This document shows, one piece after another, positions 1-57,791 of a stretch of 64,000 bases of DNA. Each line of letters starts with the position of its first letter. Positions within the stretch are counted from its first letter, which is position 1. The notes below the pieces were generated by a model. The model ran no database searches. It had not been told where the DNA came from and saw only the letters and a program-made list of their open reading frames with translations. Source of the DNA: a virus; IMG/VR virus record IMGVR_UViG_3300042448_002155, positions 32,001 through 96,000 of that record; one strand, 5' to 3'. The translations under genes and the position numbers were made by a program.

Positions 1-3000
1 GTCCATTTTGACCCGATTAGATTCTACAACAATCGGCTCTACCATTTGTTTGCCGGTATAATTATCAATGATTGATACATTTAAAATATCTTCATACGCT
101 AGATAAATTATTTGATCAGCACTGGCGTTCACTATTTCACTATTCTGAAAAGTTAACTTTCCAGGAGTAGCGGCGTCTTCGAAAACAATATTTCTATAGC
201 TCTGACCATTAACATCTACAAGTACGGGTGCGCCATTCCTAGGTGTATTCGAAAGATTAATATTAAAAAATCTTCCAGTAGAAGATTCTGTTACTGGATT
301 TGCATATATGTAATAATCATTTTCATCTAGGTACATCCAGCCTGTATGAAGTGCTGATCGCTGCTCTTCAATTAAGAATCTATCTTTTTTAGCATGTATG
401 TCTACTGACATTTCAATTTCTTGGCTAAAAGAAGAATTCAGATCGCTTAGGAGTCTGTTTCGAGATTCTGCATAAGCTTCTATTTCATCTTGTCCAGTAT
501 CAAATGTTGCATCTTTTATTATATAGACATCATTTTCGATAAGACCAAAAGAACTTTTGTCCAAATATATCTTACTTAAAAAAGAATCAGTATTGAAGTA
601 AGAGTTAGATTCATTTTCGCTTGATTCATAAACATTATCTAATGAATCTATGTATCCACTAAAAAGATTAGGAGTTGTTTGAGCCGTAAATGATTCATAG
701 GTATCAAAATATATTGGATAATAATTTGATGTAGCTGACTCGATTAGTAGATAGTGCGGTGTTGCTGCATAATTAATTGTAGCAGAATCAAAATAATCAG
801 CTGCCCCCAATGACACATCTAAAGAATCAAAAGGTTGCCATAATATATTTGGAGAAGATGAAACTAAATATTGCGAGTTGTCATCTGGATTTATAGTTCT
901 TCCGCCAATAATTCCTGATTCTATATCTTCTGCTCCAAAATATCCTAGGCCATTTGGGGCTTCAACGTTTACATAAAGGTACTGAGGAGTAGCACTCGGG
1001 GGCAAAATGACTCTATCTAGCAAATCATTTACATAAATAGACTTTGTTGAGGTACCTAAGATGGAAGGATCATTTTGCGGATTCAGACTAAAGGTATTTT
1101 TTAATATATTGGTATTTAAAGATACTACTTTTGTTGCGTAGTTTGTAGATCCAATTTTTATGTTTGCATCTTGTGGGCGCCTATTTGGAGTGGCCATTGA
1201 TGTGTAGGAATTGGCAGCTGGGTTAGTATAGTAATTTGGAGTACTCGTAGTAAAGGAGGCCCAATAGCTTGCAGTCGCAAGGGAAGTATCATATGCTTGA
1301 GAGACATAATTCCATCCGCCATTTGAGAAGACTATCTTTACTGAAGAAGCGTCATTAAAGGTAATGTTATTAGTTATGGGAGATGCATGGGTGTTTAGGT
1401 AGATCTGATTATATATTTTATCTTTGAATACCACATCAGGAACTGTGTTACCTTCCTGATCAAATATTCTAATATAGTTAAATTCAGGACTAGCAGAACT
1501 TGTAGCTGGAAATCTATTTCCAACATAAAAATCATCTCTATTGCTATAGTTTAAATTTGAATAGAATGTAGAAGGAGTAGCATAGTTGTCATGTGGCGGC
1601 ATTATTATTTCATATGTTAATCCAACTCCAACATCCTGAACTACTCCAGATTTTCTTCTGCCGGCTTCGTAATCCTGAACAGTTCTTAAGTAGTTAACAT
1701 ACCATGAATAGTCTACAAGGATTGGCGTGTAGGCGTACTCTATCCCGGTTTTATGCACTCCGGCTATAGACATTGACCCATCGAATGATATGGTGGATTT
1801 CTCTAGCGATTCTAGAATAAATCTTCCGTCAGAAAAATCTCCGATACCTGGCTGATAATATTCTGACAGTGGAGATGTACCTATGTCATATATAGCAGGT
1901 ATTCTAGCGACACCTTCGCCATCTAATCCGGAGTAGTCCCAAGTTCCCTCGCCCCATCTAACGTATCCTATATTGGATGGATACCTACTATTTAGATCAT
2001 TTACTAAATCTTTGAAGATTTTTTCTGGCCTACCAGAAGGTGAAAAGTACGGTGTTGTTTTTTCTAAGTCTGAAATTTCATATATACCTGGAAAAGATTG
2101 AGTGCTAGCAGAGTTTACATCTAGGCCGTAAGCATTCCAAATGTCTAACTCTCTTCTCAGTGTTCTCTTTAGGCCGTCGGCATAGATTGCTGGAACATTT
2201 TGTGAAACATCTAATATTCTTTTTTTGTATCTAGAATTAGTTTCTTTATATAGTCTTTGTAAGCCTGTTTTTGCGCCAAACTCATCAAAATCGTTAAAGA
2301 TGTTAACTGCGTACTGCTCGTAGGGAGATCCGTTAATTAATAATGAGACATATTCTCTCATCATGAGAATTTGCTTATCTATTGCATTGTAGTAATAAAC
2401 GTGATCTGTTATTTTACTTCTATGAAAATCTGCCAAAGAGTTTACTGGTACAACATTAACGTCATCTCCAACGACAGTCTGAAGATTGGTTGGAGTATCG
2501 TACGATACGAAAGCCCAAGCGAGCATGTCTTCGTCGGCGCTATTGATAAATGCGTTGATGTCTCTCAAGTCCATTTGTGAAACTATGTCATCTATATTTT
2601 CCTGGACTAATGCTGTCAGGAATTTACCGCCTGTAGATTCAGGAATGGCTAGAGAGGGCGTAGCAGGCTCTAGGGAGTCATCAAATAGCTTTGTCCATGT
2701 TGGGAATCTTCTTAAGATATTCCTTGCTACAGTCGAAACTACTGGAGATGTAGGCTCATGTATGCCTATTTCCAAATAAAATAATAGTCCTAAATTTGAA
2801 ACATCTAAGTTTTCGGAAAATATTTCAAGTTCTATTTTTATCCATGGTTTAGAATTTCTAATAAATATAACATTAGAATCAAATGACAGAGAGGACTTTA
2901 ACCATGGCCCATTTTCTACATCAGATTCATGAATCTGGATATTGAAAGACGGAGTCTCAAGTCCTTGCGTATTAGTGAAAGTGTGCTTATAAGCTAGTAT

Positions 3001-3330
3001 GTCTATTCTTGAGCTAGTGTCCAAAAAGCGTAGCAGGTCGGGCGTAGCGGGCTCATAGACTATTTCTCCAACGTTAGTTACATACACCACATTAGAGCTA
3101 AGGGGTGTAGATGATTCCTGAGAATAGGAAGGCGAAGTAACTTCGGTACCAACGTAAGTATTGTCTCCGATTAAATTAAGACCATAGCGAGACCTGGTGT
3201 AGGAGTAGTTCTTATATTGACTATTGCTATACAGGTTTACGGCGTTACTTGTCCATAGGGGATTTCCTGTTAAAGCGTTAGATGTCTTGACGAAATCTCC
3301 GCTTTTAAAAAGTAACAAGTATTGCTTCAT
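1..3330 (-). CDS. Large baseplate wedge-like structural protein, 3'-truncated by the window edge (>=1110 aa; absent from the ORF track)
   Basis: ATG at 3330 with GAGG upstream. Translates MKQYLLLFKSGDFVK...; the segments I translated in this frame, including the last codons down to position 1, have no stop. Contains FNDFDEFGAKTGLQRLYKETNSRYKKRILD, resembling the LD..G...GL.R...ET...Y..RI wedge signature. Lies directly after baseplate J. Confidence 0.75.
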   Translation of the reverse strand, partial: MKQYLLLFKSGDFVKTSNALTGNPLWTSNAVNLYSNSQYKNYSYTRSRYGLNLIGDNTYVGTEVTSPSYSQESSTPLSSNVVYVTNVGEIVYEPATPDLLRFLDTSSRIDILAYKHTFTNTQGLETPSFNIQIHESDVENGPWLKSSLSFDSNVIFIRNSKPWIKIELEIFSENLDVSNLGLLFYLEIGIHEPTSPVVSTVARNILRRFPTWTKLFDDSLEPATPSLAIPESTGGKFLTALVQENIDDIVSQMDLRDINAFINSADEDMLAWAFVSYDTPTNLQTVVGDDVNVVPVNSLADFHRSKITDHVYYYNAIDKQILMMREYVSLLINGSPYEQYAVNIFNDFDEFGAKTGLQRLYKETNSRYKKRILDVSQNVPAIYADGLKRTLRRELDIWNAYGLDVNSASTQSFPGIYEISDLEKTTPYFSPSGRPEKIFKDLVNDLNSRYPSNIGYVRWGEGTWDYSGLDGEGVARIPAIYDIGTSPLSEYYQPGIGDFSDGRFILESLEKSTISFDGSMSIAGVHKTGIEYAYTPILVDYSWYVNYLRTVQDYEAGRRKSGVVQDVGVGLTYEIIMPPHDNYATPSTFYSNLNYSNRDDFYVGNRFPATSSASPEFNYIRIFDQEGNTVPDVVFKDKIYNQIYLNTHASPITNNITFNDASSVKIVFSNGGWNYVSQAYDTSLATASYWASFTTSTPNYYTNPAANSYTSMATPNRRPQDANIKIGSTNYATKVVSLNTNILKNTFSLNPQNDPSILGTSTKSIYVNDLLDRVILPPSATPQYLYVNVEAPNGLGYFGAEDIESGIIGGRTINPDDNSQYLVSSSPNILWQPFDSLDVSLGAADYFDSATINYAATPHYLLIESATSNYYPIYFDTYESFTAQTTPNLFSGYIDSLDNVYESSENESNSYFNTDSFLSKIYLDKSSFGLIENDVYIIKDATFDTGQDEIEAYAESRNRLLSDLNSSFSQEIEMSVDIHAKKDRFLIEEQRSALHTGWMYLDENDYYIYANPVTESSTGRFFNINLSNTPRNGAPVLVDVNGQSYRNIVFEDAATPGKLTFQNSEIVNASADQIIYLAYEDILNVSIIDNYTGKQMVEPIVVESNRVKMD

Positions 3331-3393: not shown

Positions 3394-4563
3394 TTAATAA
3401 GTTGCAGATCCCATTATAACAGAATTTATAGTGACAGTTCCAGCGGAAACATATTTTTTAATGCCTTCTAAGGAAAAATCTTGTATAGACAATTCCTTGC
3501 CATCCGCTGTGAGACTTGAAACAATTGCACTTCTGATGTAGTCAGACGATCTATTGATTTGGGCTTCAATTTCCTTTATGGATACCGAGTCTCCAATAGT
3601 CAATGAATTTAAATACCTCTTAATGAATAAAGATGCCTGATTTTTAATGCCAGAAGATAAGGTTTCAGATACGCCCATGGGAATTCTGATCGTAGCACCA
3701 ACTGATACTGTTACCTTTTCGGCTATTCGAATATTTAGCTTAATGCCGACGGGCTTAACTGCATTAACTGCTATCAAAACGTTTTGTGGAAGATTACTTA
3801 AACCACTTGTAGTCTCTGGCACAACTACAACATCGCAAGATCCAATTCCATACGATCCTTCTCTAATTCTTACATCCCTTACTCCTCTTACGGCGAGGGC
3901 AGCAAACCTTACCGACTCAGCGCTTCCTATGGCTTTTGACTTAATCGAGGCAATTATTCTTCTTCTAAAGTTGGAGTCAGATTCTGAATTTATATTGGAA
4001 TATACTTCCTTAGGATTATTGCAAAATAGTATTACTCCAGCTGGAGAAAAGAAGTTATGCTTTGTTAAGGAGTTAACTGGAGCGACATAGGCGTTGTCGG
4101 AAAAGTTTGGTTCCACCCTACCATAAGCCCTAGTGGACCCAACCGGAATAACTACATCTCCAGCTAATTTAAAGCCATATTGTGTAGAGATAAAGTTAGA
4201 CACATCATTGTATACTAATACGCCTTTTGGTATTGTAATTGATGTACTATGGGCTTTATCTATGAAGAATTCTATATTGAATGATTGCCTGTCTTCAGAG
4301 GCATACTCTGTTATGCTCTTTCTTGAAATCCCATAAAGGTCGCCAATAAGATCTAAGTTTCTACCGGATGCGCTAGACAAATTACTTTGATTTATATTAA
4401 ATTTTAATGCCTCATAAAGATCTGACACTTCAGAGCTAAACGCCTCAGCAAATGCCCTGGCAATAGACCCTGGATAGACTGCAGATATTCCTGCATCTTT
4501 CTGTAAAGAATTTAATATATTTATTAATATATCTGACTTGCTCTTAATACCGTAAACAGACAT
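3394..4563 (-). CDS. Baseplate J / gp6-like wedge protein
   Basis: PGSIARAF, SASGRNLDLIGDLYGISRK, ESDSNFRRRI, AVKPVGI motifs; follows a gp25-like gene. Confidence 0.9.
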   Translation of the reverse strand: MSVYGIKSKSDILINILNSLQKDAGISAVYPGSIARAFAEAFSSEVSDLYEALKFNINQSNLSSASGRNLDLIGDLYGISRKSITEYASEDRQSFNIEFFIDKAHSTSITIPKGVLVYNDVSNFISTQYGFKLAGDVVIPVGSTRAYGRVEPNFSDNAYVAPVNSLTKHNFFSPAGVILFCNNPKEVYSNINSESDSNFRRRIIASIKSKAIGSAESVRFAALAVRGVRDVRIREGSYGIGSCDVVVVPETTSGLSNLPQNVLIAVNAVKPVGIKLNIRIAEKVTVSVGATIRIPMGVSETLSSGIKNQASLFIKRYLNSLTIGDSVSIKEIEAQINRSSDYIRSAIVSSLTADGKELSIQDFSLEGIKKYVSAGTVTINSVIMGSATY

Positions 4564-32636: not shown

Positions 32637-32664
32637 AATTACTCTCTTTCATTTCAATTAATTC

Positions 32665-34455: not shown

Positions 34456-34466
34456 ATGTTTCTCCT

Positions 34467-34508: not shown

Positions 34509-34527
34509 CACATAAAATTACACTCTA

Positions 34528-35190: not shown

Positions 35191-35216
35191 TTAAGTTACC
35201 CTCCTAGTCGGTAAAT

Positions 35217-36455
35217 TTATAGACTAATGGCCACTCTGACTTCGATCTCTTTGAGTTCGAAGGCAGGTGTTAAAATAAGGTCTACAACCGCCTTGTTTTC
35301 GTTCGGGATATAAGAGACCGTGAAGTCACTACCGAGCAAGGCTCCTACTATTTGCATACCTCTCAAGCCAGAAGTAATTGCTGTTTCCATCGAATTTCTT
35401 GTTTGAATATTTGATGGCTCACCAACGAATCTCTGGCAGGCTTGTCTAACAACTGAAGTAGCATCGTTGATGATTCTCTTGGTTGATAGTCGAGTGTAAT
35501 CTGATGTGGACCATGCAAAGGTTAGTCCATCTCCGAATACTGGGATCTTGTTAAAGTTAATAACAACAGTGTTAATACCCTTAGCTGATAAAGCTGTTTG
35601 CTGTGTTCTCGTAGGCGAGTATCTTACTGATTCAACATTATAAACAGCCTTGTTAACGATTGAGCTGTACGAAGGCAATATGCTCATTGTAGCAGCGAGG
35701 TGTGCTGCGCCGTTTGCATAGCCAAAGTCAGTTGTTCCAGAAACGTAATTAACTGGCTTGATTTCTGCAGCAACGACGACTACATACGGTCCAGTCTCCT
35801 TCAACAGGTCGCTGGCGTCTCTGTCGGGAAGATTGGTAAGAGCCAAATGCGTGTTTGTGTTTCCTGGAGTCATCGTTTCCGAAGCTCCATTGTAAGACTT
35901 GACGCCCATAACTGCTATGCAAGGATTAATATTTTCCGAAATATCTTTAACTTTTACCGAAACCTTATATGCCCAGTTATAGTCTACAGTAGCAGAGTTA
36001 TCTGCGTAGAAGGCACGGGTTGAGTCATCGGGTGAATCCGGCGTTGCTGCCCATTCGCTAGGGCGACCACCACGACCCCAAGGGACAATAATGTCTGGGA
36101 TGCATGATTCTGCTGCAATAAAAATATCATTAAAAATGTCTACTCCGCCACTGGTGACGGCACCGGTAGCTGGGACAAATGTGGTATTGCTTGGCAACGG
36201 GACGATATAAATTCTTCCCGCTCCACCAATAATAAGCTCAAGAAACGCTCTGTGTGCATCTGAGCCATTACCAAAAGCTGTGATAACGTCTGCTTCATTG
36301 GAGGCCCGGACAACATCAAGATCTGATATTCCACCAGTTCCACTAGCTGTACTCCGCTTTGCTATTGCAACAATTCTAGGACCAGCTGGCGTGTCCTGAC
36401 GTGAGACGCTATAAAAGCGATCTCTGATTAAAGTTCTTACTCCAGGTATAGCCAT
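35217..36455 (-). CDS. Tail sheath protein (major)
   Basis: C-terminal sheath pattern LSAKGINTV...YTRLSTKRII...FVGEPSN...LTPAFELKEIEV; GGAGG SD. Confidence 0.85.
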   Translation of the reverse strand: MAIPGVRTLIRDRFYSVSRQDTPAGPRIVAIAKRSTASGTGGISDLDVVRASNEADVITAFGNGSDAHRAFLELIIGGAGRIYIVPLPSNTTFVPATGAVTSGGVDIFNDIFIAAESCIPDIIVPWGRGGRPSEWAATPDSPDDSTRAFYADNSATVDYNWAYKVSVKVKDISENINPCIAVMGVKSYNGASETMTPGNTNTHLALTNLPDRDASDLLKETGPYVVVVAAEIKPVNYVSGTTDFGYANGAAHLAATMSILPSYSSIVNKAVYNVESVRYSPTRTQQTALSAKGINTVVINFNKIPVFGDGLTFAWSTSDYTRLSTKRIINDATSVVRQACQRFVGEPSNIQTRNSMETAITSGLRGMQIVGALLGSDFTVSYIPNENKAVVDLILTPAFELKEIEVRVAISL

Positions 36456-36569: not shown

Positions 36570-37433
36570 TTAGATATTGGGTGTTGCACCCTGGAAAAGG
36601 TCTATTATATTCACTTCTGTTCCAGCGTAGTTTGGTGTTGCTAGTTGATTCCTAATAAGATCTTTTTCATAGGCCATCCATGTTCTTGCGTCAACGACAA
36701 TTTTTTCAATTCTATTATTAGCTATTGCAAACGTTTTTTCAGTAGTTAACATATATGTGACGGTTCTTTTGTGTATATCCTTGCCGTCTCTGTTTATTTC
36801 TGAATCTGATAATCTTCTAGAATATACTAATTCAGATGCGCCTGCGGCTTTAAAAATTGAAGTATATTCCAGCATAAAGTCTTCAAAAGCTTCCATGACC
36901 TGATCACATAAAACCGCTGCGTCAAGATCATCTCTGGTTGTCGTACTATTTGCCCCTTGGAAAGTTCCGACCTTACTCATGACCGTAAAACCTACGACGT
37001 TTTGGAATTTCTGACCATAGATTGTTACCGAATTAGAAAGTACATTTTGACGCATTCTTGGCTTTGGCTCTGTGGTGTGGGATTTTCTTAGCTCTAAATG
37101 ATAACCAATTATTGCTGGAAAGTCATCTAGTCCAACACTCGTAGAAGACGGGGCTGATGAAAGATCTCTTGTGGAGTTTTCAATACCTCCAGAGTCACTA
37201 TACGTGACGGATGATTCTCTATTTATACTTAATGGCAGTATTGGTATTGTTGGATAGCTTTCTTCCCATATTTTTTTAACTAAACTAACAAACTCTAGGT
37301 AATTTAGATTTCCAGTGTATACCTCTTCGATTCCATCGCTATCTAACCTGCGATAGCCAGGAGCCTGTAGAGCCGGTAAACCGTATCTTGCATTTTCAGA
37401 AAAGTGAGGAAAATCTCTATTTAAATAACTCAT
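36570..37433 (-). CDS. Putative tail completion/terminator protein
   Basis: Lies between neck/sheath-like genes and the sheath; YGQKFQNVVGFTV...FEDFMLEY. Confidence 0.5.
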   Translation of the reverse strand: MSYLNRDFPHFSENARYGLPALQAPGYRRLDSDGIEEVYTGNLNYLEFVSLVKKIWEESYPTIPILPLSINRESSVTYSDSGGIENSTRDLSSAPSSTSVGLDDFPAIIGYHLELRKSHTTEPKPRMRQNVLSNSVTIYGQKFQNVVGFTVMSKVGTFQGANSTTTRDDLDAAVLCDQVMEAFEDFMLEYTSIFKAAGASELVYSRRLSDSEINRDGKDIHKRTVTYMLTTEKTFAIANNRIEKIVVDARTWMAYEKDLIRNQLATPNYAGTEVNIIDLFQGATPNI

Positions 37434-37434
37434 A

Positions 37435-39033
37435 TTATGCTCCTGGTCCAGCTGCTAGTGAAAAGTCTATTCTTTTTAGCCCAAAGGATGAAAGCAATTC
37501 GACCTCAAAAATAAAAACACCTCTTTGTGTTTCTGATATCTGAACGTTAAATGAGAAGTCATTTATGACTGAATTTCTTTTAAGTAGCTGTAAAAATTCT
37601 CTAGTTTCAGAAACTATTTGATCAAAAGCCATAATATCGAAATGTGATAATGCTATTCCTTTTATTTCGCTAACGACTAAAGAGACTAATCTCATTTGCG
37701 CTAGTTTCGTAAAGGTTGAATACTGATTGGCCATCGTGTATTCGTTAGTCAAATACACCTCAAAAGGTACTGCTCTTCTCGTTTTCTTGCCACGATATAA
37801 TGTATTAATTCCAATATTTTCTAATCTCTGGTATTCTGCCTGAGTAAGATCGTTACCAAATAAAGACATGGCGCCTGGAACTCGACTTCTAATCAAAGCC
37901 TTATTGAGCGGAGAATCTGATACCATTCCAGCTACCGCCGCTGCAGCGCCAGAGACATAGCTTAGCTTTATCTGAGGATGCTGGAAAACCATTTCTCCAT
38001 AGACTGGCACTATGTATCTGCCTTTATCTGAGGATATTTGACCTGTAGCCTGATTGTATACAGTAAATTTATCAGTAAATATAGGATTCTGCTCAAGTAT
38101 ATCTATGTCTGATGACTTTATTCCATTAGTTTTAGATCCTATAATTCCTATCTGTACATTTCCTGTACTATTGTGGAAATCTGAACAATAATTTGCTAGC
38201 TGCGTAACAAAGTCTACTGAACCCGTTTCGATAATAGATGTTTCCAGTGGGACTATTATATCTACAAAATCCAAATCTATTATATCTTCATAGGTTTGTT
38301 CAAGTCTTTCATAATATTTTTCATAAAAAGTTTGAGAACTAGGAGTTGCTTGATCTCGATTAAATACTGTAGTAGATATGAATCTTCCCTCATAACTTTG
38401 AACATACTCTATCATTGGCGCAGATGCGCATATCATTATGTCTCTTGCCCCGCAGGAGTATGCGTCTAAAACTCCTCGCAAAAGTGGACTGTCAAGATCT
38501 GCTTGGAGCAAATCTACTGCCTGCTGTATGGAGTTAATTTTTACTGGATAGTTTAATTGCACACCATCAGCGTGCCCTATTAGTAGAATCGTGCTCGTAT
38601 TATTTCTATTTAATTGCTGATATGTCGGCTTATAGTTTATAACGCTAGACTTAGGGGAGGTTATAGTTGCCGGAGATAATGTATTGGTAGATTGTTTTAC
38701 CTGAAAAACTGAGCCTATATTAATGTCTCTTGCTGAACTGTTAGTTCTCGCTAAAACTGTGTAGTTATATTCATATAGGTTTTGAGGAACAGTATAATGG
38801 AATGTATATTCTCCATTGGAGATTTTTTCGATTCTATTGCCGGTAGCTTCTGGATCTTGATCTAAATAAAGATATGGACCATCAATTATTGGCCCCGCTC
38901 CGTTGTCGCCTCTAACGACATATACACTTATGTCTACTGGGGTAGCCAAACTCGTTGGATCATAAATTGTTCCATCAAAATCTGTAAACACAAATTTAAA
39001 TTGGGCTGTCTGCCCCTTGGATAAAACTAACAT
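37435..39033 (-). CDS. Second tail sheath-like protein with N-terminal Ig-like domain
   Basis: LENIGINTLY...LAQMRLVSLVVSEIK...VINDFSF resembles the sheath C-terminus; probable ATG at 39033 (MLVLSKGQ). Confidence 0.7.
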   Translation of the reverse strand: MLVLSKGQTAQFKFVFTDFDGTIYDPTSLATPVDISVYVVRGDNGAGPIIDGPYLYLDQDPEATGNRIEKISNGEYTFHYTVPQNLYEYNYTVLARTNSSARDINIGSVFQVKQSTNTLSPATITSPKSSVINYKPTYQQLNRNNTSTILLIGHADGVQLNYPVKINSIQQAVDLLQADLDSPLLRGVLDAYSCGARDIMICASAPMIEYVQSYEGRFISTTVFNRDQATPSSQTFYEKYYERLEQTYEDIIDLDFVDIIVPLETSIIETGSVDFVTQLANYCSDFHNSTGNVQIGIIGSKTNGIKSSDIDILEQNPIFTDKFTVYNQATGQISSDKGRYIVPVYGEMVFQHPQIKLSYVSGAAAAVAGMVSDSPLNKALIRSRVPGAMSLFGNDLTQAEYQRLENIGINTLYRGKKTRRAVPFEVYLTNEYTMANQYSTFTKLAQMRLVSLVVSEIKGIALSHFDIMAFDQIVSETREFLQLLKRNSVINDFSFNVQISETQRGVFIFEVELLSSFGLKRIDFSLAAGPGA

Positions 39034-39035
39034 TT

Positions 39036-39407
39036 TTACTTCTCTCTTGTGGCTCCGACAGTCCAATAGTTTATTTTGCCGAACCTACCTCTAACTGCAG
39101 TGACCGCAGCTATGCTGAACATCGTATAATTTTTACTTGATTTTAAAGAATAATTTTCATATATTCTATCCCCTTCTTTAGGGAAGATATTTTCTTCAAA
39201 ATAGTATACTGCGTCGTAGTTGGTTAAAATTCCTTGTTGAGTTTCAGTAGAAGAATTTGCATTGGTTATACCAGACTGACCAACCTGACGTGTTGTTACT
39301 CTTTCAAAGTGATCAGAATGATTTCCATTTGATAGTATTCTTTGCACATAAACGTCGTGTCCCCATTGCCTAAGTATGCGATTAAAGGATTTCTTTGCAT
39401 CAATCAT
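39036..39407 (-). CDS. Putative head closure/neck protein
   Basis: About 123 aa, probable start MIDAKK; YYFEENIFPKEGDRIYE; neck position. Confidence 0.5.
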   Translation of the reverse strand: MIDAKKSFNRILRQWGHDVYVQRILSNGNHSDHFERVTTRQVGQSGITNANSSTETQQGILTNYDAVYYFEENIFPKEGDRIYENYSLKSSKNYTMFSIAAVTAVRGRFGKINYWTVGATREK

Positions 39408-49351: not shown

Positions 49352-50984
49352 CTATGCCTTTCTCATCATTAGTGTAAACGATAGTATACTCTGATTCTAG
49401 AGCATTTTCAACTAATGTGAGCCATGAATTATCAGATCTTCTAATATTTGGTGAAGTTTTTCTTCCTTGTTGATTTGCTGGTCGGATAGTATTGCCAGAT
49501 CCTCTTTTGGTATTGGGAAGATTTCTTTGCCCTTTTGTGGCGGGCGTTTGCTTATCTCCATCCCGCTGAACATCTACGGCTTTTGTACCTGAGGTAATTT
49601 CAGCTTGATTCTTAGCCATTTCCATTTGGATCTTAGCTTGAATTGATGCGTAAAGATCTTCTTCGTCGTATTCTGGATCAAGGCCAAGTTCCAATCTAGC
49701 TTCCTTAAGGCCAATTATATTATTGGCATACTTTTGGATAACATGAGTTTCTTTCTTAACCTGAGTGTCTACGTCTATTTCGTTAAACTTGAAATAGCAA
49801 CGATCTGATATACCAGACTCTATAGGATTAGATATGGGATCAAATCCGCCCTCCATTAAAATTTCGTTAAAGATATGAACTCTGACCATATCAGAAAACA
49901 GCTTTTGATATTGCTTTACCTTATCGTACAGGGCAGTATCTAAGCGATCTGTCACTGATCTATTTCCGCCATTCATCATCATTCCCAAATGGTGCGGAGC
50001 GACTCCTAGTCCAACTGCTACTCTTTCTTTGAAGTGTTGCAGATATGCCGTTGCGTCCAGTGCTGCGTTGTTTGCCCCGATGACATCTATTGAATGACGA
50101 TAAGGAAGTATTAAGCCACCCTCTGCTCTAAGGTTTTCGATTTCTATGGCAGCCTTGTCTATTTCATCGGGCTCTGCTGGTTGGTCTGCGGTTCCTATTG
50201 TATATCTATACAGAGGGAATAGTTCTCTGTGAACTAAGTTTTGAATATCCTCTTCCATCTGTCTAAGTGCAACAACATCGTCAAGCACGGTCCCCATGAA
50301 GGGTGTCCCAAAAGCTCTACCAGTCTTCTTATCGGTGTGCATATGGATAACGCGGTCAGCTGACCAAACCGGATCACGCTCTGTTGGAGCGTACGTCAGA
50401 GGGTCCGAAGCCTGCTGATATGACCTAGGTCTATTGAACTTATCTCTCAATATTCTTACTTGTTCAGTGGGAATTAAATAGTATCCTACGACCGGAAGCT
50501 CCGCATTGACCCCTGATATTTCAGTGGGAAAGTACTCCGAAATATCTCCTCTAGCCTTGACTATGAAAACATTTCCATACTTGAAAAGGTGATCAGTAAC
50601 CTCTATCAGGAAGTCTAGAAATGGGCGCTTCATTGCCATTTCCATAAAATCTATTCTTTGATAAAGATAAGAAACTGCTTCTGGATTTTCGCCAACAATG
50701 TTCCAGCTTTCTTTCCAGAAGAGTTCCTTATGCTTATTCAACGCCTGCTTGACGTAAGAGTCAGTATCTGCCGCCTGCATAATCCGATCAAAGTCATACG
50801 GAGAAGGCTCAAATGTAGCCCTATTGTTATAATAAAATGTATTACCCTGAAAGCCGAGTGCCAAGGCAGCGACTTTCATAGCTCTGCCTACTGATTTAAT
50901 TTCATCAGGTTGCAATGCCTTAGCAATAACATTATTTTGTGATTTATCTCTTTGCCTAAAGGGCAAAAAATCAAAAGCTGCCAT
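49320..50984 (-). CDS. Portal protein
   Basis: LFKYGNVFIVK, VIHMHTDKKTGRAFGTP, VAVGLGVAPHHLG, YFKFNEID, EARLELG; probable ATG at 50984 with GGAG SD. Confidence 0.9.
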   Translation of the reverse strand: MAAFDFLPFRQRDKSQNNVIAKALQPDEIKSVGRAMKVAALALGFQGNTFYYNNRATFEPSPYDFDRIMQAADTDSYVKQALNKHKELFWKESWNIVGENPEAVSYLYQRIDFMEMAMKRPFLDFLIEVTDHLFKYGNVFIVKARGDISEYFPTEISGVNAELPVVGYYLIPTEQVRILRDKFNRPRSYQQASDPLTYAPTERDPVWSADRVIHMHTDKKTGRAFGTPFMGTVLDDVVALRQMEEDIQNLVHRELFPLYRYTIGTADQPAEPDEIDKAAIEIENLRAEGGLILPYRHSIDVIGANNAALDATAYLQHFKERVAVGLGVAPHHLGMMMNGGNRSVTDRLDTALYDKVKQYQKLFSDMVRVHIFNEILMEGGFDPISNPIESGISDRCYFKFNEIDVDTQVKKETHVIQKYANNIIGLKEARLELGLDPEYDEEDLYASIQAKIQMEMAKNQAEITSGTKAVDVQRDGDKQTPATKGQRNLPNTKRGSGNTIRPANQQGRKTSPNIRRSDNSWLTLVENALESEYTIVYTNDEKGIDDVREDNNKE

Positions 50985-51008
50985 CTTCTTCTCCACTTTA
51001 AAAACTAC

Positions 51009-51494: not shown

Positions 51495-53438
51495 CATCTG
51501 ATTATTTTTCATTATCTTCAATATATCTTTGATTGCAGCAACACATACTGCAATCATAGCTGATTCTGACCAGTAGCTTGGAATCCATGATTCTAAATCT
51601 TTCATCTGTGCAATTTTATCCTCTTCAGTCATAGCGTCCGATGACACTGGTTCCCATACTGCTAGCTGAGCATCTACTTCAGCTACCTCTTCTGCGATAA
51701 ATCCGTAATCAGTAACGAATTCTCGCAGACTAGCTTTCAAATCGTCATCATCAGGCATTCTATTCCATTTAAATGTAGATGGTTTTAATTTATCAATTAT
51801 TGATAATGAGTTAGATATTTCATTAATATTATTTTTATATTTTCTTTTAGATGATGGATAGCCTAACCATGTATATCCGCTGTAATGAAGAAAAGATCTA
51901 ACCGTTGTTGAATTACTGGTGAGCGGAGTCCTGGCTATCACGTATGGATCAGAGGTGAAAAAGATTGGAACCTCTCCCCCTGCTGCGACTCCAAATTGGT
52001 TGGCATCTACTTGATAAAATCCCGTATCATCATCACCCGCAAAGCCAATAGCGGGCGATGCCTGACTGCCACCATTTACCCTTATGGTTGAACCAACCAT
52101 TATAATGTTATTGGAATTTAAAGCTGTGCCAGCTTTAAAGCCACTGGAATCTACCTCCCAATATATCACTCCATCATTGCCTCTAATCTTTCCGCTGTTT
52201 ACCTGGATAATTGCGCTAGCAGATCCAAACGTTAAAGTTGAGTTTAACGTTGTTGCCCCACTGACGGTTAAGCCACCGCTAATTGTTGTTGTACTTCCAA
52301 CGTTTAATGTACCAGCAATTGTAGTTGTGCTAGATGCTCCGCCTATGCCAATAGTTGTACCATTTACTGTTAAATTTCCAGAAACTGTTGTTGAGCTTGA
52401 AACGCTTAATGTACCAGTTACATAGGTTGTTCCAGCTAACACAGTTGTACCATTTACCCTAAGAAGCTCACTATGGGGAGCGAGACCAGCGTTAGTTCCG
52501 GAACCAATTGTAGTATTACCTGTTACACTTAATGCACCAGAAATAGTTCCCGTACCTGTTGCTGTAAAGTTACCTGTATTTGTAATTTTAAATTTTGCGC
52601 TTGCAAAAGCTCTATTTCCGATCCAGAAATTACCATCGGTATCAACCTGCAGAGAATCGTTATCTGTACCATCTCCACCACCTATGTCCAATGCCCCCTT
52701 GAAAGTTCCAGCCGTCGCTTCTACTGTTCCTCTTACAGTTATGTTATTAAATTCTGCTTGACCATCACCTCTAATCAACCAGCCAGTTGAACCAGATTGA
52801 TAATTAGAAGTTCTTATTACTGCCATATTAGCTGGAGGAGTATAAGAATATGCTGTTCCTGGTTGAGTTAATATTATTTCATGTGCGCCAATTGTTCCAG
52901 CAGTTATTTTTGCTGCCGTCAAAGAACCAATAAAATCTTCATCAATCAGTGGAGTATCGCCAGATGCAACTATAGATGTCCATCCGCTAATATTGCCAGC
53001 TGTATCAATTGTCCTTACTCTTCCATAATACTTAACGGGATTAGTTGTGGAAGAGGTACTTGTTGTTGTGCTGTTATCATCTACTGAAACGACAAAAACA
53101 TTTGTTTGAACATATCCAGTTCTATGAGGTGTTTCACCAGAAATAACCTGGTATTGTGCACTAATTAATTGTACTTGATCTTCTTTATATAATTCATATT
53201 CATATTTTGCCGTATCTTCATCAATGCTGTCTGTGTATTGAAATAACACATTAAGGAAAGATGCTGCGAGTACAAGTCCTGTTGGAGCTTCTGGAATTGT
53301 TGAATCTGTTGGAGTTCTAAATCTTACTGAATCTGTGTAGCCTGACAAAACATTAATGTCATTATTTTTTGCGCGAACAGTAACAATATACTCTTTATTT
53401 GGTTTTAAGTTTTCTATATTTTTAGATATAATACTCAT
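51489..53438 (-). CDS. Tail fibre/spike with FN3-like N-terminus and C-terminal peptidase S74 intramolecular chaperone
   Basis: NLKPNKEYIVTVRAKN (FN3); SLTAAKITAGTI; GWLIRGDGQAEFNNITVRG; PSSKRKYKNNI...LKPSTFKW...YGFIAEEV (S74). Confidence 0.8.
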   Translation of the reverse strand: MSIISKNIENLKPNKEYIVTVRAKNNDINVLSGYTDSVRFRTPTDSTIPEAPTGLVLAASFLNVLFQYTDSIDEDTAKYEYELYKEDQVQLISAQYQVISGETPHRTGYVQTNVFVVSVDDNSTTTSTSSTTNPVKYYGRVRTIDTAGNISGWTSIVASGDTPLIDEDFIGSLTAAKITAGTIGAHEIILTQPGTAYSYTPPANMAVIRTSNYQSGSTGWLIRGDGQAEFNNITVRGTVEATAGTFKGALDIGGGDGTDNDSLQVDTDGNFWIGNRAFASAKFKITNTGNFTATGTGTISGALSVTGNTTIGSGTNAGLAPHSELLRVNGTTVLAGTTYVTGTLSVSSSTTVSGNLTVNGTTIGIGGASSTTTIAGTLNVGSTTTISGGLTVSGATTLNSTLTFGSASAIIQVNSGKIRGNDGVIYWEVDSSGFKAGTALNSNNIIMVGSTIRVNGGSQASPAIGFAGDDDTGFYQVDANQFGVAAGGEVPIFFTSDPYVIARTPLTSNSTTVRSFLHYSGYTWLGYPSSKRKYKNNINEISNSLSIIDKLKPSTFKWNRMPDDDDLKASLREFVTDYGFIAEEVAEVDAQLAVWEPVSSDAMTEEDKIAQMKDLESWIPSYWSESAMIAVCVAAIKDILKIMKNNQML

Positions 53439-53971
53439 TATCTTATGCCACCTATCAGCGTAAATGTATTATTAGATTGATTAACTAGTTCATTTCCAAT
53501 TTGTAAATATAGATTATAACTAAATGAGTAAGAAGTTATTTTAATATTATTTCCATTAGATAAAACATTTTTATCATATAATGTTTCTATTTCGACAAAA
53601 TAATCTCTTTCTTCAAAATCTGTCTTTGCAAAAAGCTGTTGATTATCAGAGTAAGTTCTAGCAAATGAATCAATTGTTTGCCAATCTAAAGCTAAAGAAT
53701 TATTCGTATTTACATTATCGGAAAGTGCCGTAAATTTAATTCTAAATTTTCCATAATTAGGACCCTTACCTCCGTATAATGTAAACTTTGGGCCAGTAAA
53801 ATTCATATATAGCTTAGATGCTGGTTTTGTAGATAACCCATTATTCCAATCTGTCATTGGATTAATAAATGAAAAATTATATGATGAATCTGAATTTAGA
53901 TCAACTAAATATTGATCAGTATTTACATTGGAATAAAATTCATAATATGGATTGGTATATAATATTGTCAT
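53438..53971 (-). CDS. Hypothetical beta-sandwich structural protein
   Basis: FTGPKFTLYGGKGPNYGKFRI...IDSF resembles a carbohydrate-binding-like sandwich. Confidence 0.55.
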   Translation of the reverse strand: MTILYTNPYYEFYSNVNTDQYLVDLNSDSSYNFSFINPMTDWNNGLSTKPASKLYMNFTGPKFTLYGGKGPNYGKFRIKFTALSDNVNTNNSLALDWQTIDSFARTYSDNQQLFAKTDFEERDYFVEIETLYDKNVLSNGNNIKITSYSFSYNLYLQIGNELVNQSNNTFTLIGGIR

Positions 53972-53991: not shown

Positions 53992-54309
53992 CTAAGATTC
54001 AGTTTCTTCTTCTTCAACTATGTCCCATTGACATGTTGTTTCGTTCAAAACCCATTCGTGTTCTTCGGGCTTAGGTGGGATGAAGGCATCCCGAGTTTCG
54101 TCGTAAGTGTATCCAATACCAGCGTAGTTAAATCTTACTGGTTCTTTACCTTGCGAGTGTTCTCCAGCAAAAGTATTGACAGATGTCTTAATCCAACGCC
54201 CACCAAGGTTGTCAATTAACCATTGATAGCCTTCGTCGGGTTCGTCATTATTACCTACTGTAATATTGATAACAATATTGTTTTCGTCTATTTGTGCCCA
54301 ATGACTCAT
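53992..54309 (-). CDS. Small phage protein of the type that accompanies Gly-rich fibre tips
   Basis: MSHWAQIDENNIV...WIKTS...RFNYAGIGYTYDETRDAFIPPKP...WVLNETTCQW; ATGA overlap with the upstream gene. Confidence 0.7.
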   Translation of the reverse strand: MSHWAQIDENNIVINITVGNNDEPDEGYQWLIDNLGGRWIKTSVNTFAGEHSQGKEPVRFNYAGIGYTYDETRDAFIPPKPEEHEWVLNETTCQWDIVEEEETES

Positions 54310-57300
54310 GTTAACCACCTTAAGAAAACTACTCCAGCCCTACCCTCAGATGCTGTGGCCCCACCGCTTCCGGTTCCTCCTCCACCAGAGCCTAAATTAG
54401 TGGATGTAGTTCCGGCCGTAGAGGCGCCTCCGCTTCCGCCTTGACCGACAGTAAATGTTGAGGCTATGGTTGGATTTAATGCTACTCCGCCCGCGCCACG
54501 AGTATTTAATGATGCGGCTTCACCACTGCCGCCAATTCCTGCACCTCCGCCACCAGCCCTAAAGATGCCACTGCCTGAAGCGCTGGCTCCAGCACCTCCC
54601 AAATAATGATTATTAGAAGAACCATTACCGCCACTAGCGCCCCAGGCCCCGGCCCCTCCTGGGGACCCACCACTAGGCCCTGAACTGCTGACTATGGTGG
54701 AACCTGAATAAACTATTGAAGTGGTACCACCACTACTGCCGCCGGTGCCAGCATAGGTAAAACCAGTATTACTACCAGAAACATATGTACCACGGCTTCC
54801 ACCGCCACCAATAGTAATTACGTAATCACCCGTGCTGCTACTTGTTCGTGTTCCAGATGTGTAGTTTCCACCCGCTCCTCCTCCACCGCCACCACGGTTA
54901 GCGAGACCAGTGTTATTACCTGCGCCTCCACCTCCTGAACCACCACTCAAAGCAAAATATTCAATATCTTTAGCGCCAGTTGAAATTGTAAAAGTACCGT
55001 TAGCAGTAAAGTACACACCTGTATATCCAGCACCAGCATCATATGAAGTGCCACCTGAGGTCGTAAAAGGAATCGCTATTGACCAAGTAAATTCTTTAGT
55101 GACATTACCCGCGGTATTTTCTGCCCTAACAGTAAATGTATAGGAAAAAGAAGAGCCATTAACAGGTGTTGTATACGTCCCAGTAATTGCTCCAGTAGAA
55201 GAATTAATACTGAATCCACTAGGTAGTGATCCCGCACTAATGCTATACGTTACTGCAGAATAAGAGGCATTGCTTGATACTCCATCGGAATAAGCGGTGT
55301 TGTATGTTGGAGTTGCTAATGTTTCGTCATTCCATGTTGGAGGAGTATTTACGTTAAGGCTAAAACTTTTACTTATACTACCAACCGTATTAGTTGCCGT
55401 TATAGTGAAAGTGCTGGCATCAGCCGATAGTGGGGTTCCGGTTACTGCTCCAGTAGAAGAATTCAGAGAAAGTCCGCTTGGCAAAGATCCAGACGTAATA
55501 GAAAACGTTACACTAGGGTATCCTATAGCCGTTACTCCATCGGAATATATTAAAGATAAATTTGCATCCGCTAAAGTTTCATCAACCCATGTTGGAGCCC
55601 TATTAATTGCGCCAGAAAATGATTGTGTGACAGATCCAGTTTCATTAGCTGCCTGAATAGTGAAGGAGTATGCTCCATAATATGTTGGAGTGCCAGTAAC
55701 CGCTACAGCACTTGCAGTAAAAGCCCTCACAGGACGCACGGAGTTCGTGCTCGGCTTGCTGTCCGGGTTCGGATTGGGTTCGTTGAAATGCTGGTACCAT
55801 GCGGCTGCAGTCGAGCGCTCAGTAGAACTCCAATAGAGAACAACCGTCGAAAAACCTGCGTTCAAAGCAACTCTGTTGACATACATTTGGGTTAGTTCGT
55901 CTTTTGATGGCAAAAACCAGTCAGAATAACCACCATAAGTTAACTCACTACAATACACGGCAGCCGATGTTGCTGCCACATTTCCTGATTGAGCAACAAT
56001 ATCAATAGTGTTTTGCGCACCCGTACCTATTGCAGTACCATCAGCGCCAGAAACTAATGCTGACTGGTTCGCCCCAGTAGACCAAGTTCTTTGAACTTCA
56101 ACGGCGACAGGTGCTACCTCAAAATATTTACCTGTGGAGTTCCCCACTGTAGAGGGAGTAATAAATATTTTTCCTCCACCAGGACCAGTATCACCAATAC
56201 TAAATGTCGGACTTAAAGAAGTCGGACTTAAAGAAAGCCCCGTTGGTAAAGTTCCAGAACTAATTGTATATGTTGGACTTCCCGTAGCGACTACTTCATC
56301 CGAATAAGCTGTATTGTAAGTGAATGTTGCCAGTGTATTATCCGTCCATGCAGGCGTTACATATAGGTCATCGGTGAATAGCTGAGTAACATTCCCGGCT
56401 GCATTTTCAGCCTTGACAGTAAAGGAATATGATCCAGCTGTTGTTGAAGTTCCAGTAATTGCACCAGTCGAAGAATTTAGAGTTATTCCAGATGGAAGTG
56501 CTCCGGCAGAAATAGAATATGTCACTGCGGGATAACCTGAAGCTGCAACTGCGTCACTATAAGCCTGCCCGTAAATCATATTTGCAATTGCTGAATCAGT
56601 CCACGCTGGAGCTGTGTATATCGTTCCGCTAAAAGCTTTTTCAATATAGCCCCAAGAGTTTGTTGCGCGAATTATAAAACTATAAGATCCGGTAGAACCA
56701 GTATTTCCAGTTATAGCACCAGTTGACGAGTTGAGCGATAAGCCAGTTGGAAGAGAGCCAGAATAGATAGAGTAAACTATGGTTGCTGTACCTGCCGCTG
56801 AAACGCCATCACTATATGCTACGCCTTGGGTAATGGCGCCGAGTGCTTGATCAGACCAAGATGGCGGAGATTGTACTGTGCCGGTAAATGATTGAGTTAT
56901 TGAACTAGATAAATTTTGTGCTTTAATCGTAAATGAATATGATCCACTAGATGTTGTCAAGCCGCTAAGTAGCCCAGTTGTTGCGTTCAATGTTATTCCA
57001 CCTGGTAAGGCTCCAGAAGAAATAGAATAAGTTGGACTAGGAACTCCGTATGCCAAAATAGAATCTGAGTAAGATGAGTTATAATTTATATTTGCTAACG
57101 TATTATCAATCCATGATGTTATTTCATTTATTACTCCAGAAAAGCTGGCTTCATTATAATATTTTCCATCATCGGTTGTTGCTCGAATCGAGAAAGAATA
57201 GTTACCAGTTTCACTGACCGTACCAGTTATCCGTCCAGTAGATGAATTAATCGAAAGCCCTGCTGGTAAAGCTCCAGAAGAAACAGAATATATAGTTCCA

Positions 57301-57791
57301 ACTGCGGAAATTAAATCATCATAAGTTCGGCCATATACAAATAAATCTAATTCGATTGATTTCCAAACCGGAGCTAGATTAACTTGATAATCATCTATTC
57401 CAGCATTATCTACTTCGTTTAATTTTCTTAAATTTGGCGTATTATAATAGACGGCGTATTGTCCAACTATTTCTTCTGCTGCCGTATGCAATTCATATGT
57501 TTTAAAATAAATATAGTCGCCTTCTATTACAGTTTGAACTGGATATGCATTGTCGCCCTTTTCATAAGTCACAATATATGATGCTTCATCTGTTTGATCT
57601 TCTAGAGAGGTATCTTTATATGTATTAATGTTGACATCTGATATATTAGCAAATATCCAAGTTCCAGAATTTATTGTATCCCTTGGCGTAAATCTACCTA
57701 TAAACCTCTTGCAATAGGGGTATGAGTAGACAGTGTTGGGTGTAGCCAAGTTTAAATTTTCAGTAGATTTAAAATATTTAAACCAAGCCAT
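54306..57791 (-). CDS. Adhesin/fibre: seven He_PIG-type Ig repeats, an inserted DUF1566 (C-type lectin fold) domain and a Gly-rich C-terminal domain
   Basis: Seven G.LP.G..(L/I)...TG..(T/S)G repeats; YSDWFLPSKDEL...YWSSTE...AW...VRPVRAF; GGGGGAGG tail. Confidence 0.85.
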   Translation of the reverse strand: MAWFKYFKSTENLNLATPNTVYSYPYCKRFIGRFTPRDTINSGTWIFANISDVNINTYKDTSLEDQTDEASYIVTYEKGDNAYPVQTVIEGDYIYFKTYELHTAAEEIVGQYAVYYNTPNLRKLNEVDNAGIDDYQVNLAPVWKSIELDLFVYGRTYDDLISAVGTIYSVSSGALPAGLSINSSTGRITGTVSETGNYSFSIRATTDDGKYYNEASFSGVINEITSWIDNTLANINYNSSYSDSILAYGVPSPTYSISSGALPGGITLNATTGLLSGLTTSSGSYSFTIKAQNLSSSITQSFTGTVQSPPSWSDQALGAITQGVAYSDGVSAAGTATIVYSIYSGSLPTGLSLNSSTGAITGNTGSTGSYSFIIRATNSWGYIEKAFSGTIYTAPAWTDSAIANMIYGQAYSDAVAASGYPAVTYSISAGALPSGITLNSSTGAITGTSTTAGSYSFTVKAENAAGNVTQLFTDDLYVTPAWTDNTLATFTYNTAYSDEVVATGSPTYTISSGTLPTGLSLSPTSLSPTFSIGDTGPGGGKIFITPSTVGNSTGKYFEVAPVAVEVQRTWSTGANQSALVSGADGTAIGTGAQNTIDIVAQSGNVAATSAAVYCSELTYGGYSDWFLPSKDELTQMYVNRVALNAGFSTVVLYWSSTERSTAAAWYQHFNEPNPNPDSKPSTNSVRPVRAFTASAVAVTGTPTYYGAYSFTIQAANETGSVTQSFSGAINRAPTWVDETLADANLSLIYSDGVTAIGYPSVTFSITSGSLPSGLSLNSSTGAVTGTPLSADASTFTITATNTVGSISKSFSLNVNTPPTWNDETLATPTYNTAYSDGVSSNASYSAVTYSISAGSLPSGFSINSSTGAITGTYTTPVNGSSFSYTFTVRAENTAGNVTKEFTWSIAIPFTTSGGTSYDAGAGYTGVYFTANGTFTISTGAKDIEYFALSGGSGGGGAGNNTGLANRGGGGGGAGGNYTSGTRTSSSTGDYVITIGGGGSRGTYVSGSNTGFTYAGTGGSSGGTTSIVYSGSTIVSSSGPSGGSPGGAGAWGASGGNGSSNNHYLGGAGASASGSGIFRAGGGGAGIGGSGEAASLNTRGAGGVALNPTIASTFTVGQGGSGGASTAGTTSTNLGSGGGGTGSGGATASEGRAGVVFLRWLT
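56206..56235. repeat. Perfect 15-bp tandem duplication (GTCGGACTTAAAGAA twice) at the edge of the DUF1566 insertion
   Basis: Read directly from sequence; encodes SLSPT-SLSPT. Confidence 0.95.

Follow-up and report, generated by a model that had tools for sequence, protein, structure and literature searches.

Why should a single tripeptide, Ala-Thr-Pro (hereafter ATP), recur in the virion proteins of a phage? The question is raised by a window of 64,000 nucleotides from an uncultured aquatic myovirus lineage related to Bacillus phage 0305phi8-36, a group of which we know of no cultured member. In the 20,938 amino acids encoded in this window, ATP occurs 18 times (7+3+2+2+2+1+1, each count agreeing with that of the first-pass annotation), compared to 4.47 copies expected from composition, and it ranks first by over-representation among all 8000 tripeptides (Poisson p 1.2e-6). 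The expected density of 0.21 per 1000 aa is close to the earlier background estimate of about 0.2, and none of 300 per-protein shuffles reached the observed p. Under a per-protein first-order model, which itself soaks up part of the ATP signal, 8.7 copies are expected (p 3.6e-3). The ATP codons vary at all three positions, and the DNA pattern GCNACNCC is distributed 12/0/0 by reading frame in the gene of the baseplate protein described below. Thus, the motif is a protein-level one, as had been proposed, and a DNA-level motif or repeat is ruled out. The genes concerned are as follows.

1..3330 (-), baseplate protein, first 1110 of 1534 aa, encoded after the phrog_6 baseplate wedge gene; ATP codons at 3040-3048, 2656-2664, 1573-1581, 1186-1194, 985-993, 757-765 and 163-171
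35217..36455 (-), tail sheath; one ATP at 36039-36047 (residue 137)
36570..37433 (-), 287-aa virion structural protein matching phrog_20284; ATP at 36633-36641 and 36579-36587
37435..39066 (-), 543-aa protein encoded upstream of the sheath gene; ATP at 38938-38946 and 38341-38349
43713..44486 (-), 257-aa Ig-like (Big_5-like) protein; ATP at 44358-44366, 44154-44162 and 43794-43802
45736..46500 (-), 254-aa protein, gene just upstream of the capsid gene; one ATP at 46210-46218
48235..49014 (-), head-module glycosyltransferase (head GT) of predicted GT-A fold, 259 aa, between the portal gene (49320-50996) and a 544-aa gene
54306..57791 (-), He_PIG/Ig-repeat protein, 1161 aa; ATP at 57738-57746 and 55308-55316

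The enrichment within this genome comes almost wholly from one protein, the 1534-aa baseplate protein. Its gene, preceded by the wedge gene at 3394-4563, runs 1274 bases past the window start (genome coordinates 30726-35330), and five further ATP copies lie outside the window in addition to the seven inside it. The full-length protein therefore contains 12 copies, compared to 0.32 expected (p 1.6e-15); when it is set aside, ATP is unremarkable in the rest of the genome (12 vs. 6.7, rank 283). The copies are not products of duplication within the protein: self-BLAST returned the identity match only, which rules out internal repeats, and hhalign of 26 site-centred profiles gave at most 14% probability for any non-overlapping pair, which rules out homology between the sites. 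In the AF2 model of residues 1-970 (pLDDT 78), for which a Foldseek search of the PDB yielded no meaningful match, all 17 [AS][TS]P sites are assigned to coil by their DSSP states, and most of them sit 1-4 residues ahead of a beta-strand; the ATP sites are predicted by this model to lie in loops. Residues 203-531 match a protein of Bacillus phage WH1 that is encoded beside baseplate J. Because this homologue, gp087, has one ATP, the tag does not extend to the Bacillus phage group.

Across homologues, the ATP sites are conserved and non-repetitive. Among 121 homologues, ATP is 34-fold above expectation and is the top tripeptide, and the site positions in baseplate homologues are stable down to 27-37% identity. 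The conservation of Thr is 76% at ATP sites, compared to 46% elsewhere, and that of the flanks is 47%. The number of copies is distributed in two classes: 183 of the 189 full-length baseplate homologues hold 6-21 copies and six (P0142, P0158, P0176, P0177, P0199 and P0200) hold 0-1, with none at 2-5, and the composition-based expectation is similar for both classes. P0177 clusters with two sisters of 11 ATP each (support 1.0), and the five other ATP-less proteins fall in one clade common to three ATP-rich members; P0161 and P0198 are among the ATP-rich sisters. The ATP-less lineages are thus nested within ATP-rich ones and would represent four or five losses that are independent of each other. 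At the former sites in the ATP-less proteins, Ala and Pro often remain and Thr is replaced by Y, H, L, E, V or R. Given that the ATP-less homologues often keep Ala and Pro yet swap Thr, the fold does not need ATP, and something else probably reads the motif. Likewise, ATP behaves as if it were read by another factor, given that certain lineages have lost every copy together.

The sites in the five smaller tagged proteins are also kept among relatives. In the tail sheath, of which PHROG sheath families match residues 245-410 only, the ATP site is N-terminal to the matched part and is found in 14-16 of 16 distinct relatives. Both copies in the 287-aa protein are C-terminal; one is present in 16/16 relatives and the other in 15/16, with ASP in the remaining relative. 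The 543-aa protein probably starts at the ATG at 39033; its residue-240 ATP is kept in 17/17 relatives, while its residue-41 site switches among ATP, STP and ASP. The 257-aa protein, whose Big_5 match is weak and whose gene is just downstream of the capsid gene, has three copies, compared to 0.05 expected, and may take part in head decoration. These copies are retained in 37/40, 40/40 and 36/40 distinct relatives, and where they are not, STP or TTP takes their place. The single copy in the 254-aa protein is kept in 49/49 distinct relatives and in the orthologue (66% identical) of G002, a complete 231-kb relative. The G002 orthologues of the sheath and of the 287-aa protein contain two ATP each, and the G002 orthologues of the five small proteins together contain 6, compared to 0.5 expected. 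With the baseplate protein left out, ATP still ranks first among the tripeptides of G002 (42 vs. 13.2).

The first-pass annotation had described exterior virion proteins as enriched in ATP. This stands for a fixed subset of virion proteins, the baseplate protein and the five smaller ones, and does not stand for exterior proteins in general. Neither the major capsid protein (MCP; 44621-45685) nor the tube-like proteins (33670-35190) contain ATP, and the five large proteins adjoining the baseplate gene (4468 aa) have none. Together with the MCP, a Thr-rich fibre and the accessory domains inserted into homologues (10,749 aa in total; 2 ATP vs. 3.4 expected) are at background. The 1161-aa protein, in which Pfam identifies He_PIG six times and Lcl_C, had been counted among the enriched proteins; its 2 copies compare to 0.59 expected (p 0.12), and because ATP is not significantly enriched there, its place in the tagged set is doubtful. 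The reported absence of ATP from the tape measure (2207 aa), the 1617-aa protein and the 3754-aa hub is correct as a count. Since only 1.2 copies are expected in these three large interior proteins together, it is not statistically meaningful and does not amount to depletion.

The gene at 48235-49014 had been singled out earlier as a glycosyltransferase (GT), and fold, DxD motif and COLGALT1-type matches agree with that assignment. The AF2 model of the head GT (pLDDT 91, pTM 0.90) places COLGALT1 first in Foldseek (E 2e-17), followed by LH3, mimivirus R699, TarP and SpsA, with a Foldseek probability of 1.0, and a profile search of the PDB also finds COLGALT1 (E 8e-8). Its invariant residues are D114-S-D116, H231 and Q204-G-E-D207, and the DxD motif S112-L-D-S-D116 shows no variation among 14 sequences, the most distant of which are 39% identical. 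The nearest ESM Atlas clusters carry PF13704 (Glyco_tranf_2_4-like), which is precomputed on all 120 listed homologues, these being the best 120 of 583 matches and all from the near clade; two of the listed PF13704 clusters are 100% identical to the head GT with 100% coverage. In direct searches with family profiles, hmmscan of the head GT reports Anp1 alone, at 17.7 bits vs. a cut-off of 28.8, and the head GT is not among the matches of a PF13704 profile search of its own genome at E <= 0.01. As modelled, the gene encodes a GT-A glycosyltransferase, and it is a candidate reader and writer of the ATP motif. It is syntenic in the loci of 45/45 close relatives.

Three further GT genes lie outside the window. 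GT2a and GT2b sit among nucleotide-metabolism genes and could act on DNA or a polysaccharide instead; a GT-D-like gene is found in the close clade only and is for that reason rejected as the motif's partner. Each of the six ATP-rich records with a completeness of at least 69% has the head GT, GT2a and GT2b. In an ATP-less lineage, G006/G007, which we count once given the identical match coordinates and lengths of the two records, all three are absent and there is an empty slot between the portal and 544-aa homologues; the baseplate homologue has 0 ATP, and the proteome has 9 copies vs. 9.7 expected. GT and motif are thus found together wherever checked and are both missing from G006/G007. The presence of the GT2 family (PF00535) as such fails as a discriminator, as G006/G007 carry two unrelated GT2 genes. 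It should be added that G006/G007 are distant (MCP 32-36% identical, only 26 shared ORFs) and that, therefore, many other genes also co-vary with the motif. An alignment-based scan of IMG/VR found ATP-rich loci and this distant pair only, and the correlation between motif and GTs is one independent contrast.

Glycosylation at ATP by a GT system of the phage is in our view the best reading of the motif, and we put its chance of being right at about even. The first-pass annotation had offered Thr O-glycosylation, proline-directed phosphorylation or docking of a decoration protein, an interpretation that is partly supported as a whole. In the proposed mechanism, ATP, or more loosely [S/G/A]-[A/S]-T-P-[S/N/D/G], would be a short linear recognition motif in loops; it would be borne by a baseplate protein at the periphery, the sheath in its outer part, the two tagged proteins whose genes lie upstream of the sheath gene and the two small proteins on either side of the capsid gene. 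Its most likely reader would be the phage-encoded GT system, at work in the cytoplasm while virions are assembled. The head GT, or GT2a or GT2b, would transfer a sugar from a host nucleotide-sugar onto the Thr hydroxyl, the remaining GTs may lengthen the glycan, and the surface of baseplate, tail and head would become decorated with glycans. From the sequence patterns we infer an enzymatic reader, its identity as one of these GTs, Thr as the acceptor residue, and shielding or adhesion as the purpose. The excess of the motif, its conservation above the flanks and its non-homologous contexts are all as expected for an enzyme-read sequon. A general surface-coating system would, however, be expected to tag the inserted domains and the five neighbours of the baseplate gene too, and the absence of any excess there counts against glycosylation. 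Stated in full, ATP would be an undescribed O-glycosylation sequon of a large clade of uncultured aquatic myoviruses of ~200 kb, used by small soluble GT-A enzymes in the host cytoplasm to equip a single baseplate protein with 10-20 glycans and selected proteins of tail and head with a few; this fuller version we hold tentatively, at slightly below an even chance. A literature search for Ala-Thr-Pro glycosylation returned nothing relevant.

To our knowledge, few phages have been found to carry glycosylated proteins on their particles, and such glycosylation has no defined short sequon so far. If the reading is true, ATP would be the first such sequon for protein glycosylation encoded by a phage, with natural knock-out lineages that shed the enzymes and every site together. 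It would then serve as a sequence-readable marker of glycosylated virion proteins in hundreds of uncultured aquatic phages, and enzyme and tag would form a compact pair, possibly usable for site-directed cytoplasmic O-glycosylation. The ATP-rich and ATP-less sisters provide a natural experiment on what a baseplate coating does, be it access to the receptor, defence against proteases or grazers, or adhesion.

The alternative that survives best, although we consider it unlikely, is that ATP serves for the docking of a partner that is not an enzyme, such as a decoration, cement or fibre-anchoring protein or an assembly chaperone, and that the motif was lost after the partner was lost. All-or-none loss and conservation fit any trans-acting reader equally, the correlation with the GTs is a single contrast, and a fixed protein subset with untagged inserted domains fits docking better than it fits general surface glycosylation. 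However, the 12-21 sites are scattered over non-homologous contexts and extend to six proteins from head, tail and baseplate, a large number for a single partner to bind, and no candidate partner was identified. A length of three residues is also typical of sequons read by enzymes, and little for a stable docking site. Should the reader nevertheless be a docking protein, the motif would still be an unrecognised assembly code common to head, tail and baseplate.

An improbable alternative is that ATP is a structural element of the fold family, a loop or beta-strand N-cap kept by descent without any reader. In its favour, every site in the AF2 model is coil just before a beta-strand, Pro is often kept in the ATP-less homologues and the motif is missing from inserted foreign domains. 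Against this, six full-length homologues persist with 0-1 ATP and none has 2-5, and Thr is replaced at the same positions by bulky or charged residues. Moreover, six proteins of this phage that are unrelated to one another share the motif, which does not recur in this way in the related G006; the single copy in the Bacillus phage homologue and the absence of repeats point the same way. Judged from these sequence comparisons, the bimodal counts and the nested losses argue strongly against a purely structural role.

Somewhat less probable still is another modification at Thr-Pro, either phosphorylation by a proline-directed kinase or hydroxylation of Pro with subsequent O-glycosylation of the hydroxyproline; the enzyme could come from the host or from the phage. 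Proline-directed kinases classically act at S/T-P, Hyp-glycosylation in plants takes place in the context [A/S/T]-P, and two 2OG-Fe(II) oxygenase genes are present in the close relative G008. Nevertheless, profile searches with PF13640 and PF00069 found no prolyl hydroxylase or protein kinase conserved across ATP-rich genomes: PF00069 is absent from G000, G004 and G008 with a sub-threshold match only in G002, and PF13640 is absent from G000, the complete G002 and G004. The phosphorylation suggested earlier thus finds no conserved kinase, and after motif loss it is Thr that changes while Pro stays. Chance or a composition artefact can be dismissed: although the excess in this genome is not significant outside the baseplate protein and the first-order model weakens the window p, the p for the baseplate protein, the shuffles and the repetition of the excess in ~180 homologues and an independent proteome rule it out.

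Glycosylation at ATP by phage GTs would resemble several known systems in part. HMW1C/NGT is a cytoplasmic GT41 enzyme that acts at N-X-S/T, and the general O-glycosylation of Bacteroidota is periplasmic and lipid-linked and uses the motif D-(S/T)-(A/I/L/V/M/T). As in these systems, a three-residue motif in loops would suffice to label numerous positions of a single large surface protein; unlike in these systems, the motif is A-T-P and the candidate enzymes are small soluble phage GT-A proteins.

The head GT shares the GT-A fold and DxD motif with COLGALT1/GLT25D1 (PDB 9evj), the GT/accessory domains of LH3 and R699 (Foldseek E 2e-17 to 4e-10). However, the GT1 domain of COLGALT1, the region matched by the head GT, is structural and non-catalytic (PMC12003778); therefore, nothing about a protein acceptor can be read from the structural match. 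The acceptor of COLGALT1 is collagen hydroxylysine, the head GT is only 16-18% identical, and no collagen repeats or lysyl hydroxylase were seen in this phage.

Mycobacteriophages (Che8 and relatives) are described as having virions glycosylated by phage GTs, with glycans, proven chemically, at the C-termini of capsid and tail-tube subunits (Freeman et al., 2023, Cell Host Microbe 31:1216, as presented in PMC12619734 and PMC11256854). As in those phages, several GT genes are encoded per genome, virion structural proteins are the proposed targets, the reaction would be cytoplasmic and the GT genes are conserved with structural genes (synteny in 45/45 loci; three GTs in six genomes). The targeting differs: the MCP and tube-like proteins are without ATP, and the sites, identified from sequence alone, are a tripeptide in internal loops of the baseplate protein and five others. 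The 'moraphage' is a different-looking aquatic lineage (PMC12619734). In chlorovirus PBCV-1, the capsid is glycosylated by virus-encoded GTs at atypical sequons (reviewed in PMC5408694 and PMC9614988), which is similar to the virus-encoded cytoplasmic glycosylation of a virion protein at a non-canonical short motif that we propose here; PBCV-1 differs from this phage in being a eukaryotic virus whose glycan, chemically solved, is N-linked to Asn of the major capsid protein.

The tripeptide Ala-Thr-Pro (ATP), proposed in the first-pass annotation as a modification sequon on exterior virion proteins, occurred 18 times in the 20,938 aa of the window proteins, compared to 4.47 expected from per-protein composition. 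It ranked first in over-representation among all 8000 tripeptides (p 1.2e-6), and 0 of 300 shuffled proteomes reached the observed value. All ATP counts of the annotation were correct on recount. Its view that the motif resides in protein and is not a DNA repeat also held, as codons differed between sites and the DNA pattern GCNACNCC was found in the reading frame only (12/0/0 by frame). The zero ATP of the tape measure, the hub and the 1617-aa protein is, however, no depletion, because just 1.2 were expected. The signal in the window is dominated by one protein, the 1534-aa baseplate protein, whose gene (ORF 1-3330, minus strand) leaves the window and which at full length contained 12 ATP vs. 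0.32 expected. Without this protein, ATP in the genome was unremarkable (12 vs. 6.7 expected). The observation itself is confirmed and holds across the whole phage clade.

The window covers bases 32001-96000 of a single virus contig of 113,714 bp (CheckV completeness, 54%), and every window gene is on the minus strand. The capsid protein was 38-42% identical to its counterparts in Bacillus phage 0305phi8-36 and related phages, and the capsid gene had 558 relatives in IMG/VR, the best 80 of which were at least 90% identical. The gene order, which also includes tape measure and hub genes, is:

59602-61461, minus strand, terminase
49320-50996, minus strand, portal
44621-45685, minus strand, capsid
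35217-36455, minus strand, sheath
3394-4563, minus strand, baseplate wedge; the next gene along is ORF 1-3330

Directly downstream of the sheath gene are two neighbouring paralogues of 261 and 220 aa (33670-35190, minus strand). Both match phrog_9206, whose label "major head protein" is probably wrong for them; their gene position suggests a tail-tube identity. At 37435-39066 (minus strand), the longest ORF opens with a TTG codon (39066) and shares sequence with its upstream neighbour. The start is more likely the ATG at 39033, as in the annotation.

In all 120 baseplate homologues of the first search (37-97% identical), 6-17 ATP were found vs. 0.2-0.8 expected. Family-wide, ATP was 34-fold above expectation, with the overlapping TPN, STP, TPS and SAT next in rank, and the wider consensus was [S/G/A]-A-T-P-[S/N/D/G/E] followed by hydrophobic residues. 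Neither self-BLAST nor profile-profile comparison of 26 site-centred windows detected homology between the ATP sites. The sites are conserved between homologues, as they kept their alignment columns (T96 in 96 of 112 sequences, T224 in 107 of 120 and T1055 in 103 of 121) and Thr conservation was 76% at ATP sites vs. 46% for other Thr and 47% for the flanks. Columns with STP, ASP, AIP or SFP in the reference protein were ATP in many relatives. When residues 1-970 were modelled with AlphaFold (pLDDT 78), 17 of 17 [AS][TS]P sites were in coil, usually 1-4 residues ahead of a beta-strand. Longer homologues (P0002-P0096) contained accessory domains at a small number of insertion points, among them those following reference residues ~563, ~869 and ~973. 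Lcl_C/DUF1566 (PF07603) was frequent in homologues with an insert after ~563, and PF14312 and PF02018 were also found among the longer homologues. These points look like domain-shuffling hot spots, and ATP in the inserts was at background level (2 in 10,749 aa). In Bacillus phage vB_BceM_WH1, two different baseplate-region proteins shared the hexapeptide ATPDGN (VPAATPDGN and NLYATPDGN), beyond which ATP was not enriched in that region.

Five smaller virion proteins of the window are also tagged:

257-aa Ig-like protein, after the capsid gene, 3 ATP sites
254-aa protein, before the capsid gene, 1 ATP site
287-aa protein, before the sheath gene, 2 ATP sites
543-aa protein, before the sheath gene, 2 ATP sites
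sheath, 35217-36455, 1 ATP site, beyond the conserved core

Their sites were near-invariant in relatives that are 53-99% identical, where STP, ASP or TTP were the sole substitutes. Given that these five were picked post hoc, they were tested through their orthologues in the complete 231-kb genome of an ATP-rich relative (G002), which contained 6 ATP vs. 0.5 expected (p 1.4e-5). Without its baseplate protein, ATP was still the top tripeptide of the G002 proteome (42 vs. 13.2). This relative also encodes a 1618-aa protein with 11 ATP and an adjoining 590-aa protein with 3 (G002:C1:200988-207628), beyond the portal gene on the side opposite from the capsid gene. The flanks of this region match window 49320-50996 and 53438-53971, and the best match of the 1618-aa protein in our genome is not the He_PIG protein. 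ATP was at background in the capsid protein, portal, tape measure, hub and non-structural genes, and absent from the 4468 aa of the five large proteins directly downstream of the baseplate gene. The same was true of the fibre-like 745-aa protein at 40766-43003 (minus strand), which is 20% Thr and 13% Ala, carries repeated units and has the highest Thr content of the window proteins, but no ATP. As the capsid, fibre, downstream neighbours and baseplate inserts are all at background, "exterior virion proteins" is too broad a description; the tagged proteins are a fixed subset.

Searching 1.8 billion representatives brought in baseplate homologues at 27-35% identity. Among 189 full-length homologues, ATP counts were bimodal: 183 had 6-21, six had 0-1 and none had 2-5, with similar composition-expected values for both classes. 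The ATP-less homologues were nested within the ATP-rich ones; one (P0177) grouped with two 11-ATP sisters (support 1.0), and five others shared a clade with three ATP-rich members (support 0.96). At their former sites Ala and Pro were often kept, while Thr was replaced by Tyr, His, Leu, Glu, Val or Arg. Selection on all sites seems to turn off jointly, which points to a trans-acting reader. Such a reader, whether it acts by glycosylation, docking or another modification, is likely and well supported. Thr O-glycosylation by the phage's own glycosyltransferases (GTs) is the best single reading, with about an even chance of being correct, and its main rival is a docking partner that binds the motif. 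A purely structural motif is poorly supported, since ATP-less homologues persist with Thr replaced and their fold is therefore independent of it. Phosphorylation is poorly supported too, as no kinase conserved across the ATP-rich genomes was found, and so is chance. Nor was any prolyl hydroxylase conserved across these genomes.

With regard to O-glycosylation, a candidate reader is the 259-aa product of 48235-49014 (head GT), annotated as a GT, which is a glycosyltransferase of the GT-A type. Its neighbours in the ESM Atlas carry PF13704, as do 120 of 120 among the homologues listed, and a profile search of PDB matched COLGALT1 (E 8e-8). With its AlphaFold model (pLDDT 91), Foldseek ranked COLGALT1, LH3 and mimivirus R699 first, followed by TarP and SpsA. 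Its invariant residues include D114-S-D116, H231 and QGED 204-207. What it matches in COLGALT1 is the GT1 domain, which is non-catalytic (PMC12003778), so that this likeness is no pointer to a protein acceptor. Three further genes lie outside the window on the same contig:

genome 5692-6333, GT-D-like (PF22882)
genome 6343-7083, GT2
genome 8539-9330, GT2

Their targets may be protein, DNA or polysaccharide. They are set among nucleotide-metabolism genes, with a helicase, HD protein, nucleoside deoxyribosyltransferase, DenV, SNase, dCMP deaminase, ThyX and RNR as neighbours.

The head GT lies between the portal gene and a 544-aa gene (46519-48153) in each of the 45 related loci that had sufficient flank. 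Seven IMG/VR records whose baseplate proteins are rich in ATP (11-18 copies) contained it, and the six of these that are at least 69% complete also contained orthologues of both GT2 genes. In two records from a single distant lineage, G006 (161 kb) and G007 (100 kb), the baseplate homologue contained 0 ATP, and the G006 proteome showed no ATP excess (9 vs. 9.7 expected). Neither the head GT nor either GT2 orthologue was found in these two records, only two unrelated GT2 genes, and their portal homologue directly adjoins the 544-aa homologue. For the co-occurrence of motif and GTs, this amounts to one independent contrast, and as the lineage is distant, many other genes co-vary with the motif as well. 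In G006, the 544-aa homologue is split between an ORF of 309 aa and an adjoining one of 382 aa (G006:C1:146343-148423).
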